Part shown: one piece after another, positions 9,001 through 24,000 of the stretch | Numbering within the stretch: position 1 is the first letter of the stretch | How the letters are laid out: each line of letters starts with the position of its first letter | Assembly (NCBI GenBank): GCA_965238005.1 | Contig: OZ250165.1 | Location: forward strand, 1,504,001 to 1,568,000 | DNA: 64,000 nt | Source of the DNA: Longimicrobiales bacterium | GTDB taxonomy: Bacteria; Gemmatimonadota; Gemmatimonadetes; Longimicrobiales; Gaopeijiaceae | Direction: 5' to 3' | Position numbers: made by a program

Positions 9001-12000
9001 CGGAGGAGAGCTGGCGTGACCCCCCCCGTTCCCGTTGCCGTATTCGCGTCGGGCGGGGGAACGAATCTCCAGGCGCTTCTGGATCATGAGAGGGCGAGCG
9101 GAGCCTACAGAGTCGTGACAGTCATCTCCGACCGCCCGGATGCCGGGGCACTCGATCGAGCCAGGGCGGCGGGTCGTGACACTCTGGTGATCGCCATGAA
9201 AGATCGCTCTCAGGAGGAGATCGGGGAGGAGACCCTCCGGCACCTGCGCGACCGGAACGTGAAGGTCATCGCCCTGGCCGGGTATCTCAGGCTCATGCCG
9301 TCGGCCGTCGTGGCCGCCTATCCACGACGCATCCTGAATATCCATCCGGCGTTGCTTCCCGCCTTCGGCGGGAAGGGGATGTACGGAGAGCGAGTCCACC
9401 AGGCGGTACTGGCTGCGGGGGCCAAGGTGACGGGAGCCACTGTCCACTTCGTGGACGAGGAGTACGACACCGGGACGATAGTGGCCCAGTGGCCCGTTCC
9501 GGTCCTTCCCGAGGATGATGCCAAGGGAGTGGCCGCCAGGGTCCTCGTGGCGGAGCACCGCCTCTACCCGGCCGTGACCGATCACCTATGCAGAGCGGTG
9601 GCGGAGGGCAGGGATCCGGGACCGTTCACCCTCCCGTCCAGTGATTTCGAGTCCGCATTCGGGAACGAGACCCAGGGCGCGAGCCGATAGGGGAGACAAG
9701 CGAGATATGAAGCGACGAGCGCTCCTGAGCGTGTCCGACAAGTCGGGCATAGAGACTCTGGCCACGTCGCTGGTGGAGGCCGGGTGGGAGATCCTGTCCA
9801 CTGGCGGTACGGCTCGTACTATCCGAGACGCCGGCCTGCCGGTGACCGAAGTGGCCCAGGTTACCGGGCATCCGGAGATGATGGACGGGCGGGTGAAGAC
9901 GCTTCATCCGGCCATTCACGCCGGCCTCTTGGCGCGTCGCGACCGGCCTGACGACATGGCCTCGCTCGAGAAGCACGGGTACGGCCCCATCGACCTGGTT
10001 GCCGTGAATCTCTATCCGTTTCGAGAGACCGTGGCACGGGGGGAGGTTCCGGTGGGCGAAGCCATGGAGAAGGTGGACATCGGCGGGCCCACCATGATCC
10101 GGGCCGCGGCCAAGAGCCACGCCGACGTCCTGGTGGTGGTGGACCCATCGGACTACGACCGTGTGCTTAGCGCGCTGGTGGATGGCGCGACGGTAGACGT
10201 CAGGTTGCGTCGCAAGCTCGCCGCAAAGGTTTTCCGTCACATCAGCGATTACGACGCAGCGGTGGCGGCGTATCTGGAGGCGGGGGCTGGCGGTGCCGAG
10301 GACGAGGGGTCGGAGGCCACGTCCAACGATCCCGAGTCCGGCCAGGGAGCGACTGACTCCGACCCGAGCGCCCCCGACTCCTTGTCCCTCGACCTCGAGC
10401 TGGTCCAGGGACTGCGGTATGGGGAGAACCCCGGTCAGGAAGCCGCCTTCTACCGGTGGTCCGGCAGGCGAGACGGCCTGGCGGGCCTGCAGCAGCTGCA
10501 CGGGAAGGAGCTCTCGTACAACAACCTGCTCGATCTCGACGGGGCTCTCATGTCGCTGGCGCCCTTCGCGTATTCCCCGAGGCCAGCCGTCTGCATCATC
10601 AAGCACACGACGCCCTGTGGCCTGGCCGTGGCGGGGACCTTGGCCGAGGCCTACGAGCGAGCCCTCCGCACGGACGGCGTGAGCGCGTTCGGCTCGGTGA
10701 TCGCGGTGAACCGGTGTATCGATGAGGAGACGGCCGAGGCCATGTCCGGGCTCTTCATCGAGTGCATCGTGGCACCGCGTTTCGAAGATGAGGCCATTGA
10801 GGTTCTCACGCGGAAGAAGAACCTCCGGCTGCTGGTCTCGGGCGGGATCGGCGAGTCGGTGCAGGGCGAGCCGGACGGGGACTGGTGGAAGAGGGCGCCC
10901 GAAGAGGTCCGCAGGGCGGGTCGCTTTCTGGCGGAGCACGGACGACGGCCTGAGGGCCTGGCGTTGCGAAGCGTGTACGGTGGAATGCTGGCCCAGAGCC
11001 CGCCGCTGCCGCCCTTCTATGGTGTGGGCTCGGTGGACTGGTCCGTCACTACCGAGCGCGGCCCCGACGAAGCCGAGTGGGATGATCTGCGCTTCGCTTG
11101 GGCGGCGGTCTTCGGTGTGAAGTCCAACGCGATCCTCTTCGCCAGCGGTGGAGCCACGCTGGGCATCGGCGCCGGTCAGATGAGCCGGGTGGACTCCTCA
11201 CGTATCGCGGTCCAGAAGGCAGCCGATGCGGGTCTCGACCTCCAGGGTGCCGTCCTGGCCTCCGACGCGTTCTTCCCGTTCCGGGACGGCGTCGACGCGG
11301 CCGCCGAGGCGGGCGTGCGCGCCATCGTCCAGCCTGGGGGCTCGGTCCGGGACGAAGTGGTCATCGAAGCTGCCAACGAGCACGGCATGGCCATGGTCTT
11401 CACGGGTCAGCGCCTCTTCCGCCACTGATCGCGCGCCGGAAGGGCATAGACGCGCGACCTCTTTACACGAGGCCCGTGAATGCCTGAGCTTTCGCCAGGC
11501 AGAAGCGTCTGGAGGGGTGGCAGAGCGGTTCAATGCACCGGTCTTGAAAACCGGCGGGCGCAAGCCCACGCGGGTTCGAATCCCGCCCCCTCCGCTAGTG
11601 CAATACGGCAAGAGCCGATGTAGTATAGACTTACACCGTTATCTGTGCATCGTGCCCTACGGTGTGTCCCACACTACGAGCGGGACGCAAACACTTCCGG
11701 CAGGTGTTCTACTCGGCCGCGCGGGACGGCCAGCCCAAGCCAGGCCCTCAATAGCCTTCCAGCGCTCGCGCAACTGGAGAACTGACCGCCCGCGTTCGCC
11801 CGTCATGCCTCTGGCAGTTTCGGCGGCTTGTCTTCCTCATCGAACAAGCTAGGCGGCTTGGTAGTGGCCCCCAGGCGTTCGGCCACGATCCGGGTGTAGC
11901 AGTCCACAAGGTCGTGAGCCGCCATCGCCACGGGCACGCCGGGAGCGGACCCGGACCCCTCGATACGAGCCATCAATTCAACGGCGCACTCAAGGCCGAA

Positions 12001-21000: not shown

Positions 21001-24000
21001 CTCGATCCATGCGTCCGAAGCCTCCACCCTTGCCAGCGCGGCCCGGACCTCTTGGTGGGGGACCGCGCGGAAGTGCTTCACCTTGCCCCCGTTCTTCGGC
21101 AGTGCCGCCCCGATGGCGTCACCGGCCGGGTTGTCCTCGCGGTAGCCTTGGGCTATTGCCCACTTCATGACTGCGCCGATGCGCTGGCGCACCCGCCGGG
21201 CAGTCTCCCTCTTGGTGCTCCAGATCGGGAGCAGAACGGCCATCACGTCGGCGGTGTTGACCTGGTCCACCCTCTTCCTCCCGATACGAGGGAAGGCGTA
21301 GGTCTTTAGGCTGGCGCGCCACTGGGCTTCGCTCTTGCTTCCCGGCCGCCACGCCTCAAGGTGAATCTCCAGAACCTTCTCCAGTGCGCCCTCGAAGCTG
21401 GGGGCCGTGGTCTTGAGTGCGCGCGGATCGCCACCGGCTCGGGCGAGTTTCTTGTACTCGAACGCCGCCTGGCGCGCTTCGGCGAGCGCAGTGTAGGGGT
21501 AGCCGCCGAGGCCCAGGTCTACCCGGCGGCCCCGAACGGTGCCGCGCCAGATCCATTGCTTGCTTCCGGTGGGCTTCACCCGTAGGATCAACCCGTGCTC
21601 ATCGTAGTAGAGTCCGGGCTTCGCGTGCTTCACGCTGGCCGCCGTGAGTCGCTTTGGCATCGTTCGATTCCCCCGCTGTGTCCTACGCCGTGTCCCACAC
21701 TGTATTCGAGAATACACGCAAAGGCGTAAGAACACAAGAGTACGAAGGGGAACGTAACCCGAAGGTACTACAGGGATTTAGAGACTTCGCGGGAACCTAC
21801 GGGAACACCTGAAAACCATAAGAGAGGGACGCCCCCTCCGCTATTGTGGGACAACGACTTACGGCAAAAGGCCCGCCCGCCGAAAACCGGCAGGTGGGCC
21901 TTTTGGCAACGGTTTTGGCAACGGCTACCGCGGAATGGGACGTTGGCCCGCAACTGCCTCAAGGGTGTCCAGGGCCCCGCTCCGGCTCATCCACGAGCGA
22001 TCGAAGGTGCTCGCGGGAGAGGTGTGTATAGCCCATCGTGGTGCGTAAGTCGGAGTGACCAAGACTCTCCTTCACGTGCACCGGATTCTTCTCTTCGGCC
22101 AACTTGTAGAGATCGGGTCGAGCCGCGGATTCGATTTCACCGCCGAGGAGATACTTAGCGTGCGCAGCACCGCGCTCGACGACGAAGAGCTGACCGACGA
22201 CGCCCTTGAGGCCGTGGCTGGCGGCGGCCAGGTCCAGGATCCGGAGGCGTCGAGGGTGACCAGGACCAAGAAGGAGAAAGTGCAAAAGCTGGACACGACG
22301 GAAATACTTCGGCCCTAGCGACACCGCGATGGCGAAGCGGTAGCGCCTGAGAAAGTCCACGGCAGAGTCCTCGAGTGGAGTTGACCCGCTTTGGTGGACA
22401 CCTCAGTAGTGAGGGAGACAGGAGGAGTCCACGATGCCAAGAACACATGCGCCGTACCCGCCGGAGTTTCGGCGGCAGATGGTCGAGTTGGTCAGGTCGG
22501 GCCGCTCCGTGGAGGAGCTGGCCCGGGAGTTCGAGCCCTCAAACGGGGCGATACGGAACTGGGTCAAACAAGCTGACTTGGATGAAGGCCGTCGCAGTGA
22601 CGGGCTGACGACGGAGGAGCGTGGGGAACTCAGGCAGCTTCGGCGTGACAACAAGCGTCTGCGCATGGAGCAGGAGATTCTAAAAAAAGCCGCCGCCTGG
22701 TTTGCTCGGGAGAGCAACTCGATCCCGGAACGGGGTTCGAGTTCATGAAGACGAATCAGGCCGACTTCCCTGTGCGGGCGATGTGCCGTGTGCTGGATCT
22801 CTCCCCCAGCGGCTACTACGCCTGGTTGGATCGCGAGCCTTCGGCTCGGGCGAAGCGAGATGAGGAGCTCACAGAGCGGATCGAGACGGTCTGGCGCGAG
22901 AACCGAAGGGTCTATGGCCGGCCCCGCATCTACGCGGACCTCAAGGAAGCTGGCGAGCGGGTCGGTGAGAAGCGGGTGGGCCGGCTCATGAAGCAGGCCG
23001 AGATTGTGGGAGCTAGCCGGAGGCGGCGCGGCCCGAAGACGACCAGGCGCAACGAGGACGCCCGTCCCGCGCCGGATCTCATCGAGCGGGACTTCAGCGC
23101 AGACGGGCCAGACCAGTTGTGGGTGGCCGACATCACCTACATCCCGACCTGGGCGGGGTTCTTGTACCTCGCGGTTGTGCTCGACGTCTGGAGCAGGCGG
23201 GTGGTCGGGTGGTCGATGGCTACGCACCTGCGCACCGAGCTCGTCCTGGACGCGCTGAACATGGCGACCTGGCAGCGCCGGCCCGAATGCGTCATCCATC
23301 ACAGTGATCAGGGAACCCAGTACACCTCGATCGCCTTCGGCCTACGCTGCAACGATGTCGGTGTGCGGCCCTCGATGGGCTCCGTGGGCGACGCCTACGA
23401 CAACGCGATGTGCGAGAGCTTCTTCGCGACGCTCGAGTGCGAGCTACTCGACCGGCAGCGCTTCCGGACCCAGGCCGAGGCGAAGATGGCCGTGTTCGAC
23501 TTCATCGAGGGCTTCTACAACCCCCGGAGGCGACACTCGGCACTGGGTCAGCTGTCGCCCATCAACTTCGAGCGTCGCCACGGAGCGGCAGCATGAGAAA
23601 CCTGCGTGGCCAAGTTGCCCTTTACTCCCCCGCTGCGCGGGGGAAGCTTTCCTCTCCCCAGCGAGGGGGACAGACTATAAACCTCAGTGTTCACCCGTCC
23701 ACTGAAACGGGACAGCTCCACTTCTGTCTTACGCCCGAGTGGGTGCTGTCGATCAGGTTGGTCGAGCCCAGGCACTTCCTCAGCCGCGGCGGGAGGCCGA
23801 GCCGGTTGATCGTGAACATCTCGCTGAGGCCTTCGCGTAGGCTGGCCGAGGCCGAGGGGTGGTCGCGCTCGAGCCATCGGGCGAGCTGCTCGAGCTTCTG
23901 CTCGCCCTGCTTCGCGTCCAGCTTCATCGCCGCCCGGAACGCCGCCTTCACCTGAGGATGCTGATCCTTCGGCAGATGACCCAGCACGTTGCGGAGCTTG

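Follow-up and report, generated by a model that had tools for sequence, protein, structure and literature searches.

In the packaging of tailed phages, the small terminase subunit (TerS) is regarded as the protein that selects the genome, and it serves as a core marker for finding capsid-forming satellites. According to two papers on HK97, cos is recognised by TerS (PMC11331095), the HNH protein gp74 triggers cos cutting, and TerL together with procapsids is enough to package linear DNA in vitro (PMC9410871). The closest described satellites are the cf-PICIs, exemplified by EcCIEDL933 and captured in the SatelliteFinder cfPICI model (PMC10085698); for EcCIEDL933, each annotated packaging gene is reported to be required for transfer (10.1101/2022.09.08.507074). 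The element described here lies in a window of 64,000 nucleotides of contig OZ250165.1, from a Longimicrobiales bacterium (Gemmatimonadota), and possesses nine of the 11 cf-PICI core functions. Like a cf-PICI it is an att-bounded chromosomal element with an integrase, within the 10-18 kb range, and the two have in common the integrase, AlpA (PF05930, here representing the AlpA/MerR/Stl regulator), capsid, protease, portal, connector, adaptor, HNH and TerL, with no tail or holin genes; the portal falls below curated cut-offs, and the connector and adaptor are assigned from predicted folds that match HK97 gp6 and phage stoppers. In contrast, neither the TerS nor the primase-replicase of cf-PICIs was found in the window element, its gene order (terL-HNH-capsid-protease-connector-stopper-portal) differs from that of EcCIEDL933 (capsid-protease-portal-closure-connector-HNH-terS-terL), the family measures ~10 kb against 15.4 kb, and its TerL falls outside the EcCIEDL933 lineage in a tree drawn without two Firmicutes cf-PICI lineages. 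Family capsid and portal profiles gave no match to the EcCIEDL933 genes. An earlier note on this DNA had proposed a cf-PICI-like family in new hosts. The satellite character and the spread across phyla stand, but because TerS, a core component, was not found, the window copy has no primase, and the gene order and TerL lineage differ, these are not simply cf-PICIs in new hosts. Instead, the element is very probably a phage satellite that forms its own capsid and represents a separate lineage.

Comparison with other systems places the element further. HK97-like cos phages share with the family a connector of gp6 fold, a gp7-like stopper, an S78 protease, an HNH partner and a TerL match, but the family is without tail and lysis genes and TerS, has a quarter of the genome size, and carries its HNH gene behind terL rather than before terS. 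The Streptomyces satellites MulchRoom and MiniFlayer, as described (PMC10690885), likewise have their own head genes, an HNH and no primase, and MulchRoom also has a tyrosine integrase as well as a tail of the helper's type, but they differ in TerS, a scaffold, ~1-kb terminal repeats and genomes of 14.8-17.4 kb. EPIPs (PMC12822802) are also small (~11 kb or less) integrative satellites with neck genes, and their listed genes include TerS, a serine integrase and a tape measure but neither TerL nor portal; the marine VEIMEs (PMC9618062) are small and integrative but are without capsid genes. A classical PICI may not contain portal, connector or adaptor under the SatelliteFinder PICI model (PMC10085698), whereas the window element has all three. 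A gene transfer agent is a fixed, vertically inherited locus without att sites, unlike this element, which is att-bounded and absent in congeners, and a temperate tailed prophage carries genes for a tail tube, a tape measure and lysis, none of which is present here.

The element spans 10,246 bp between 14-bp repeats of a tRNA-Ser 3' end (CGCCCCCTCCGCTA; plus strand, 11584-11597 and 21830-21843), which occur only twice when both strands of the 4.84-Mb genome are counted; the bounds, target and two-copy repeat of the earlier note hold, its repeat length of 13 bp being one short. The target, tRNA-Ser(TGA) (11511..11595, plus strand, ARAGORN), stands behind purH (9641-11428, Pfam). A 12-bp repeat, GTGTCCCACACT, with its two genomic copies at 11664..11675 and 21690..21701 (plus strand), provides candidate integrase arm sites. 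Both congeners checked are without the element at tRNA-Ser, and in one of them (G002) the tRNA end is followed by 38 bp that are 87% like 21830-21866; the mobility of the window copy is supported only indirectly, by these empty sites. The element's TerL is present in 1 of 60 other relatives, and of 301 genomes from the phylum 10 have the capsid. In Logan contigs from four runs, no attP or attB joint stood among the 15 of 64 joints listed. One X3 contig tracks the right arm to 21842 and then continues for 133 nt that do not resemble the window; X4 shows greater depth over the left flank than over the element, summed contig depth not being a copy number. Promoter and terminator scans remained at chance level.

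The genes of the element discussed here all lie on the minus strand. The integrase, a P4-type tyrosine recombinase of 377 aa (20527..21660; PF00589, PF13356 and PF22022 above cut-off), and AlpA (19719..19949; PF05930, 5.7e-14) had been named before and are borne out. The integrase is followed by a 176-aa ORF (20000..20530) with relatives in two other loci. A 219-aa protein with a C-terminal winged helix (19020..19679; weak TrmB/AlkZ-like matches, 0.88 or less in ESM Atlas) occupies the slot where relatives carry replication genes, some of them primase-helicase, O-like or Replicase genes, and may act in replication. No element ORF matched a primase-replicase in Pfam, PHROGs or NCBIfam, in agreement with the lack of a replication gene reported previously. 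The remaining accessory ORFs are three small ones (71, 76 and 56 aa; 18410..19023), without relatives or a TerS match, and one of 105 aa (11803..12120), ribbon-helix-helix-like by eye, with no relative in 108 loci. The statement that 11 of 12 proteins were without a PHROG match could not be reproduced, as seven element proteins match at E<=0.006.

The element encodes a complete HK97-type head, i.e. capsid, protease, portal, connector and stopper, along with TerL and an HNH endonuclease. The major capsid protein (about 411 aa, 15277..16512) reaches 32.5 bits for PF05065 against a cut-off of 24.2, as the Pfam assignment in the earlier note implied, and had no match at E 0.01 in 50,697 cultured-phage records. 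The portal (343 aa, 12273..13304) is weakly matched by profiles (PF04860, 7.8e-8, below cut-off; TIGR01537, 4e-4), so that its former assignment is qualified in that respect, yet the family is conserved in 82 of 82 capsid-plus-portal loci. In the S78-type prohead protease (152 aa, 14405..14863), His61 and Ser101 are invariant across 28 sequences; its profile matches the N-terminus of PDB 9sz9 (E 8.5e-6), and the relative at L101 matches PF04586 (2e-10). The connector (Ad1, HK97 gp6-like; 120 aa, 14052..14414) had been described as connector-like, and its predicted model (pLDDT 86.8) agrees, with HK97 gp6 (3jvo) as top fold (Z 9.1, rmsd 3.5, 83 aligned). Foldseek also ranked gp6 first, but at E 2; the connector profile found nothing among PDB sequences, and hhalign against HK97 gp6 was negative. 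For the head-closure protein or stopper (Hc1; 113 aa, 13711..14052; pLDDT 80.9), the model's fold is closest to chains of phage necks (Z 9.6, rmsd 2.6, 91 aligned), and its family profile matches HK97 gp7 at 92% (E 5.8e-7); of 82 family loci, no more than 27 showed this adaptor. A 135-aa protein (13304..13711) is probably a tail-completion/Neck1 (Ne1-like, HK97 gp10-like) protein. This weak assignment comes from a P-x-x-[ST]G-x-L stretch common to relatives that match phrog_5/PF04883; hhalign against HK97 gp10 gave only 1.7%, and ESM Atlas 0.93 to unnamed viral clusters. The P-loop protein (AAA_33; 140 aa, 14851..15273; PF13671 above cut-off) is optional, being present in 10 of 82 loci.

With Pfam, PHROGs and NCBIfam, the element showed no gene for a tail tube, tape measure, baseplate, holin or lysis, and two profiles found no tape measure in the whole genome. 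The earlier claim of no tail genes is upheld for tube, tape measure and baseplate, and gives way at the probable Ne1-like gene, which as a weak candidate is a borderline case for the absence of holin and tail genes. The HNH, prohead protease, stopper, P-loop and probable tail-completion genes are additions to the earlier inventory, as is the observation that TerS is missing from it.

The same module forms a family with its own TerL clade of 87 sequences from eight phyla, on a stem of 0.98 that sets it well apart from the phage TerLs in the tree; the tail-less, capsid-forming, tRNA-integrated family across phyla that had been proposed is supported. Gene order is fixed (terL-HNH-capsid-protease-connector-portal). 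Each of the 82 capsid-plus-portal loci has the full set of TerL, HNH, capsid, protease and portal, as does each of the 28 tRNA-bounded copies, a count that excludes three duplicates (L169-L171) and L158 with its 11-bp repeat. These larger counts take the place of the 16-locus tally in the earlier note. These 28 copies measure 6.6-12.1 kb (median 10.2; 25 of them 9.5-11.1 kb), and 18 different tRNA types serve as family targets. The longest contig was 9.0-11.0 kb for 35 of the best 120 TerL homologues, one member (L178) assembles as a 10,581-bp circle, and terminal repeats were found in 1 of 17 short contigs. Across six genes of the three closest clean pairs, dN/dS was 0.11-0.44; distant pairs, the window pairs included, gave 0.16-0.73 near saturation. 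A value of 1.18 for the L151-L153 capsid was an artefact, because the capsid of a neighbouring prophage had been picked. The neck set varies between members and may extend to tail-completion and terminator genes; the modules observed are a connector only, a connector with a stopper, a further addition of tail-completion/terminator genes, and a connector fused to long domains. Clusters c168, c169 and c77 near L108/L140, considered as tail genes, proved to be host genes by sequence.

TerL (484 aa, HK97-type, 16845..18299) matches phrog_9 at 4.1e-48, as given in the earlier note, and carries ATPase and nuclease motifs. Its best cultured-phage matches are HK97-like (27-30% over half of its length), and a scan of viral contigs with the single window TerL gave nothing. 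Behind it lies the HNH endonuclease (102 aa, 16540..16848; PF01844, phrog_119), with a conserved C-terminal helix in which Trp73 is nearly invariant (53 sequences). In a predicted model of the TerL-HNH pair, this helix docks on the TerL nuclease domain. The model scored 0.71 against 0.00 for the best of three controls, the mark for such models being reached by 116 of 157 solved pairs and 2 of 215 mismatched pairs; the runs had 0% or more of their contacts in common, the partner's pLDDT was 64 or higher, and one of three runs scored 0.29. Because an HNH-TerL partnership is known in HK97, this result may reflect likeness. TerS was not detected in six frames of 108 family loci with the P27 profile (best E 1.5), which found TerS in 100 of 131 outgroup loci but misses HK97's own TerS (gp1), a protein with its own PHROG family; divergent TerS families can therefore escape it. 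Among 28 host genomes, phrog_5601 matched in none and phrog_83 in two, both times outside the elements, and there was no TerS match in the window element or its genome. The family thus seems to package without a recognisable TerS, where a wholly new TerS fold could escape such searches.

Cross-locus comparison revealed a conserved motif before terL, ATGGCACCGGC (18344..18354, minus strand), a candidate cos or nick site with a single match in the window (0.14 expected). It exists in two exclusive forms, ATGGCACC in 35 of 74 loci and the GGGGACCCCT type in 22, with both in none and neither in 17, the cultured member among these; the forms occur in 1 and 0 of 102 outgroup loci. Within the motif lies ACCG, where phage HNHs linked to terminases nick DNA according to PMC3592412. 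The motif was rejected as a short peptide start, since 38 of 40 ATGGCNCCN were ATGGCACCG and frames and ORF lengths vary. Its form did not co-vary with HNH or TerL columns beyond shuffles (best 0.76 and 0.80; shuffled maximum 0.78), and no conserved cis motif was seen by eye between HNH and capsid.

We propose a mechanism by analogy with cf-PICIs. Once AlpA is switched on, the integrase would excise the element, which would replicate through its own winged-helix protein or through helper or host functions; cutting at a cos site would then yield one 10-kb unit to fill a small head, with lysis and the tail coming from a helper phage. The element thus probably steals a phage tail. The HNH nickase, tethered to the TerL nuclease domain via its C-terminal Trp helix, may mark the motif before terL. 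That TerL and HNH constitute a two-part terminase replacing TerS, with HNH marking this motif, is a tentative suggestion, to which we give a little less than even weight. Exchange of neck genes between members might tune the head to different helper tails. The full scheme is somewhat more doubtful: a satellite family over at least eight phyla, in which TerL with its tethered HNH reads a 9-11-base cos motif without TerS, fills a very small head with ~10 kb, and swaps neck modules to capture tail types and cross phyla. Volume scaling from the 39.7 kb of HK97 gives ~11 kb for a T=3 head and 17 kb for T=4. For a helper in the window's genome (95.85% complete), PF10145, phrog_28, PF05119, phrog_83 and PF03237 all gave no match.

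The same satellite could instead receive TerS from its helper in trans, with the motif copying the helper's cos/TerS site and its two forms representing two helper groups. The motif form does not follow HNH or TerL residues, three members from Vicinamibacterales sit within the late operons of tailed prophages or directly beside them, a P27 TerS stands ~4.4 kb before L151 in that genome, and P4 and some SaPIs use their helper's cos (10.1101/2022.09.08.507074). However, the family TerL is set apart from the sampled phage TerLs by its stem, only one outgroup phage-like locus carries the motif, and the same motif spans phyla that would need different helpers; we consider this reading fairly unlikely. 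It is less probable still that TerS is encoded by the element but unrecognisable and variable by member, as a small ORF near terL or after portal. TerS families do diverge fast, as the failure of P27 on gp1 illustrates, and most small ORFs are without annotation, but the genes that precede terL and follow portal show no relation to each other, most loci have only the six core gene families in common, and several members, L104 and L124 included, have no gene between the att site and terL.

A prophage that decayed by losing tail, lysis and TerS genes would explain the absence of a replication gene in the window copy, the stray neck and tail-type genes of some members, and the IS-broken or truncated ones. 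The worry over a reduced prophage, raised in the earlier note, is nevertheless largely answered by the fixed gene order, unlike that of HK97, by the tight size at 18 tRNA targets and by dN/dS well below 1 in close pairs, which indicates purifying selection; the members also form one TerL clade, in which a tape-measure-like gene was seen beside the module only at L086 and in prophage-lodged members. We regard such decay as very improbable. Hardly more credible is a tail-less entity that steals no long tail, whether its connector-fused domains attach it in MiniFlayer-like hitch-hiking or as a tiny virus, or whether it packs host DNA in GTA-like fashion. Eleven connectors are indeed extended to 220-1,115 aa, with extensions that have no Pfam match, the circular L178 is without an integrase, and packaging at random would be in keeping with the absence of a sequence-specific TerS; yet the window connector has no extension, the stopper is a docking part for a long tail, and there is no lysis gene. 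The constant element size and the conserved motif favour packaging of the element's own DNA.

With no recognisable TerS but a fixed size and a conserved site, the family allows one to ask directly whether TerL and HNH are enough for specificity and, as one cultured carrier exists, can be tested now. If the neck-module scheme is true, swapping would let a satellite cross phylum borders via different tail types. The hosts are mostly uncultured lineages of the eight phyla, and the family is nearly absent from cultured-phage and viral-contig collections; it is therefore a likely means by which genes pass unnoticed between uncultured bacteria. It was not found in print in the open-access literature, and members may be present in the element lists of SatelliteFinder and of cf-PICIs. 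The family is large, its capsid profile recovering 1,948 clusters (50% identity) at E<=1e-30, counted on sequence without regard to genomic context. The window proteins that match phrog_4581, labelled "terminase small subunit", are the HNH and the P-loop protein, each over one of two successive parts (positions 50-117 and 124-256, respectively). In Lactobacillus phage Lrm1, PMC3592412 describes gp54 as an HNH-AAA fusion with this layout, whereas in the window HNH and P-loop are separate genes that flank the capsid gene.

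The element at 11584–21843, which encodes phage heads and is integrated in a tRNA-Ser gene, is probably a satellite. ARAGORN places tRNA-Ser(TGA) at 11511–11595; its terminal 14 bases are repeated at 21830–21843, with no further copy in the 4.84-Mb single-contig genome, so that the pair delimits a unit of 10,246 bp. The earlier note was thus right that this direct repeat occurs in two copies only, while its length is 14 bp and not the 13 claimed. A 12-bp repeat at 11664 and 21690, about 80 and 140 bases inward of the ends and present twice genome-wide, would represent the integrase arm sites. 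The purH–tRNA-Ser segment matches both congeners at 96–97%, no gene of the element lies within 20 kb past tRNA-Ser in either of the two, and both align with the window again near 34.7 kb. In one congener (G002) the tRNA end is joined directly to 38 bases that are 87% like 21830–21866, which, judged from sequence, is the layout of an empty site. The element is most likely mobile DNA. Its TerL (large terminase) was found in one of 60 other relatives; of 301 genomes in the phylum, 10 carry the family capsid, the present one being among them. No excision joint was present among the joints listed for four sequencing runs. Beyond the right att lies a second, decayed island (21959–34700) with an integrase fragment, pieces of IS3 and Mutator-family transposases, a hydrolase, a DPP-IV peptidase and an AMP-binding enzyme; the ORFs scanned in it include no tail genes.

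All genes of the element are on the minus strand, in the order integrase, 176-aa ORF, AlpA, 219-aa winged-helix protein, three small ORFs, TerL, HNH, capsid, P-loop protein, protease, connector, stopper, 135-aa ORF, portal and 105-aa ORF, and the structural genes are single-copy in the genome. The 152-aa ORF is, by its sequence features, an S78 prohead protease, since 28 sequences all keep His61 and Ser101 and the profile matches the N-terminus of PDB 9sz9. The model of the 120-aa ORF (pLDDT 86.8) has an HK97 gp6-like fold (Z 9.1, rmsd 3.5, 83 aligned), and 13 of the top 14 rows of the fold search carry titles of neck, tail or virion structures from phages or GTAs, the remaining row being the Bacillus protein YqbG; it is predicted to be a connector with the HK97 gp6 fold. 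The 113-aa ORF is a putative stopper, its model having a phage-stopper-like fold (Z 9.6, rmsd 2.6, 91 aligned) and its family profile giving a 92% match to HK97 gp7, and weak evidence makes the 135-aa ORF a probable tail-completion protein. The searches of the element revealed no primase, holin, endolysin, tail tube or tape measure, in agreement with the previous claim that it lacks tail genes. The P4-type integrase has about 20 full-length paralogues (43–54% identity) at many places in the same contig, and AlpA has 11 paralogues there without head genes. The contig also holds two large tRNA clusters of 17 and 18 genes (1035994–1037821 and 4451264–4455247), the former of which may belong to another mobile element.

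Of 8,000 candidates scored, 2,067 are TerL homologues at E<=1e-30. Alignment of 42 of the homologues led to 79 loci from genomes and 22 close loci from metagenomes, together with 6 close viral contigs, and 108 loci were analysed, the present one included. The order terL-HNH-capsid-protease-connector-portal is nearly fixed. TerL, HNH and protease are present in all 82 loci having both capsid and portal, accompanied by the connector in at least 76, the stopper in at least 27, the tail-completion gene in at least 16 and the P-loop gene in at least 10, these profile counts being lower bounds for small genes. A set of 28 non-redundant copies lies between repeats of a tRNA 3' end; these copies use 18 tRNA types and measure 6.6–12.1 kb (median 10.2 kb; 9.5–11.1 kb in 25 of the 28). 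For the best 120 TerL homologues, the longest contig is 9–12 kb in 36 cases, 6–9 kb in 14 and 12–15 kb in 8, an excess at 9–12 kb that could be caused either by free circles or by assembly breaks at att sites. One member, L178, is circular (10,581 bp). The closest clean pairs (L088/L089, L104/L108, L121/L122) have dN/dS of 0.11–0.44. The replication slot of relatives holds, variously, O-like initiators, Replicase/PriCT proteins or primase-helicases. L178 (1–10704) has no integrase; its connector is part of a 658-aa fusion, and two of its proteins look secreted, one of them resembling a pore-former by eye, without Pfam or PHROG match. Prohead proteases of 280–350 aa occur at L101 (13449–14405) and in about 26 more loci, their second half looking like a domain repeat, and the C-terminus of most proteases, an R-rich stretch plus WL, overlaps the start of the connector. 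L089 carries SocA/Panacea antitoxin-like cargo past the portal (16058–16600).

A small terminase (TerS) was sought with a profile built from 60 genes upstream of outgroup TerLs, the TerS of the reference cf-PICI (capsid-forming PICI) EcCIEDL933 included. This profile detects TerS in three reference elements and at 100 of the 131 outgroup loci, but gives no match when run on the family loci as 26,005 six-frame segments (best E 1.5). It failed to detect HK97 gp1, and therefore gp1 itself and its PHROG family were also used as queries; the best E of gp1 against family loci was 1.5, and its PHROG family matched none of 28 host genomes. Matches to phrog_83 occur in two of the 28, both outside the elements, and the 150 and 77 neighbour proteins scanned contain no TerS family match. 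The genes adjoining terL and portal differ between members, without mutual relationship. The element's HNH and P-loop protein receive the phrog_4581 label 'terminase small subunit', which agrees with phage Lrm1, where an HNH-AAA fusion is described as formerly annotated TerS (PMC3592412).

A motif search upstream of terL recovered ATGGCACCG (log-likelihood 224, against 44 for shuffled sequence and 67 for a control region). This form occurs in 35 of 74 non-redundant loci and GGGGACCCCT or a near variant in 22, with none having both and 17 having neither; the corresponding counts in 102 outgroup loci are 1 and 0. The motif is conserved at the DNA level, its copy in the window lies at 18344–18354, and it includes ACCG, given as the nick site of terminase-linked HNHs such as N.phiGamma (PMC3592412). 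At the C-terminus of the family HNH is a helix in which Trp73 is nearly invariant, a feature lacking in the 12 outgroup HNH ends compared by eye. A TerL-HNH model scored 0.71 against 0.00 for the best control, with one run at 0.29; of 157 solved pairs, 116 attained the mark for this score, and of 215 mismatched pairs, 2 did. The model places HNH residues 69–82 on the TerL nuclease domain, with contact agreement between runs of at least 0% and partner pLDDT of at least 64. We propose that the motif would be cos and the HNH its reader, TerL and HNH forming a two-part terminase without TerS. In HK97, TerL and procapsid are described as the minimal in-vitro packaging set, with cos cutting triggered by gp74 and an extra nuclease element proposed as its platform (PMC9410871). 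Counting against a TerS-free terminase, HK97 cos is reported to be read by TerS (PMC11331095), and motif form shows no co-variation with HNH or TerL residues; we regard the two-part terminase as possible, at somewhat less than even chances.

The heads of cf-PICIs are reported to accept helper tails, the match being set by connector and adaptor (10.1101/2025.02.11.637232). In comparison, the neck set of the present family is more variable: many members have the connector as sole neck gene, and in others it is joined by a stopper, a tail-completion gene or a terminator (L093; L140, 8521–9081). Stray tail-type genes sit within or beside L086, L105, L108 and L140, with single members having a Dit-like gene (L105, 3107–3595), a PF18352 gene (L108, 9269–9865) and a tape-measure-like gene (L086, 15772–17391). 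Connectors with C-terminal extensions, of 220–1,115 aa in total, occur at L159 (5653–8994), L181 (5611–8958), L120 (3470–5272) and 8 more loci; some extensions have fibre-like repeats by eye, and none has a Pfam match. Three Vicinamibacterales members lie inside or against late operons of tailed prophages (L151, 9779–18737; L123, about 9825–18812; L152). They have no replication gene, and tail tube, tape measure, holin and endolysin genes follow downstream. L151 interrupts a tail-completion-type gene with a 9-bp duplication, the copies 8,958 bp apart. The surrounding prophages are helper candidates. No such candidate is visible in the window's genome, where whole-genome searches with tape measure and terminase profiles gave no match.

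In a FastTree TerL tree of 121 rows (86 family, the Pseudorhodobacter copy, 30 of 95 outgroup rows, 4 references), the family occupies one side of a branch of 0.98 with support 100, separate from HK97 and EcCIEDL933; long branches meet at the family stem, leaving root and sister group unsure. Hosts are named in 70 rows; they represent 8 phyla, with 21 phylum changes required, which bears out the earlier claim of a spread across phyla. The rows nearest to the window's TerL are Gemmatimonadota and Gammaproteobacteria records (72–75% identity). The host names include Ca. Palauibacter rhopaloidicola and Ca. Spongiisociaceae, which are sponge symbionts. A basal member resides in a cultured carrier, Pseudorhodobacter turbinis S12M18 (NZ_CP039965.1, 4036–17767). 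Bounded by 55-bp tRNA-Cys repeats, it takes up 13.7 kb, a length to which an IS3 and the second of its two integrases contribute, and continues with an AAA_25 helicase and a GTA-type connector, different from that of other members, followed by terL-HNH-capsid-protease-portal, with no P27 TerS match.

By function, 9 of the 11 cf-PICI core components (as listed in PMC10085698) are present, which suggests by analogy a cf-PICI-like mode of action. We do not class the element as a cf-PICI, because TerS and primase were searched for and not encountered, gene order differs from that described for EcCIEDL933 (10.1101/2022.09.08.507074) and the TerL is a separate lineage; the cf-PICI likeness noted earlier therefore holds for function but not for membership. 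MulchRoom/MiniFlayer, EPIPs and VEIMEs, as far as their descriptions go, differ from the family in TerS or capsid content, and no description of the family was found in the open-access main texts searched. Two alphaproteobacterial plasmids of 16–17.5 kb (NZ_CP157016.1 and NZ_CP088250.1) carry head, neck and P27 TerS-TerL genes with no tape measure annotated, and may be plasmid-type capsid-forming satellites of another lineage.
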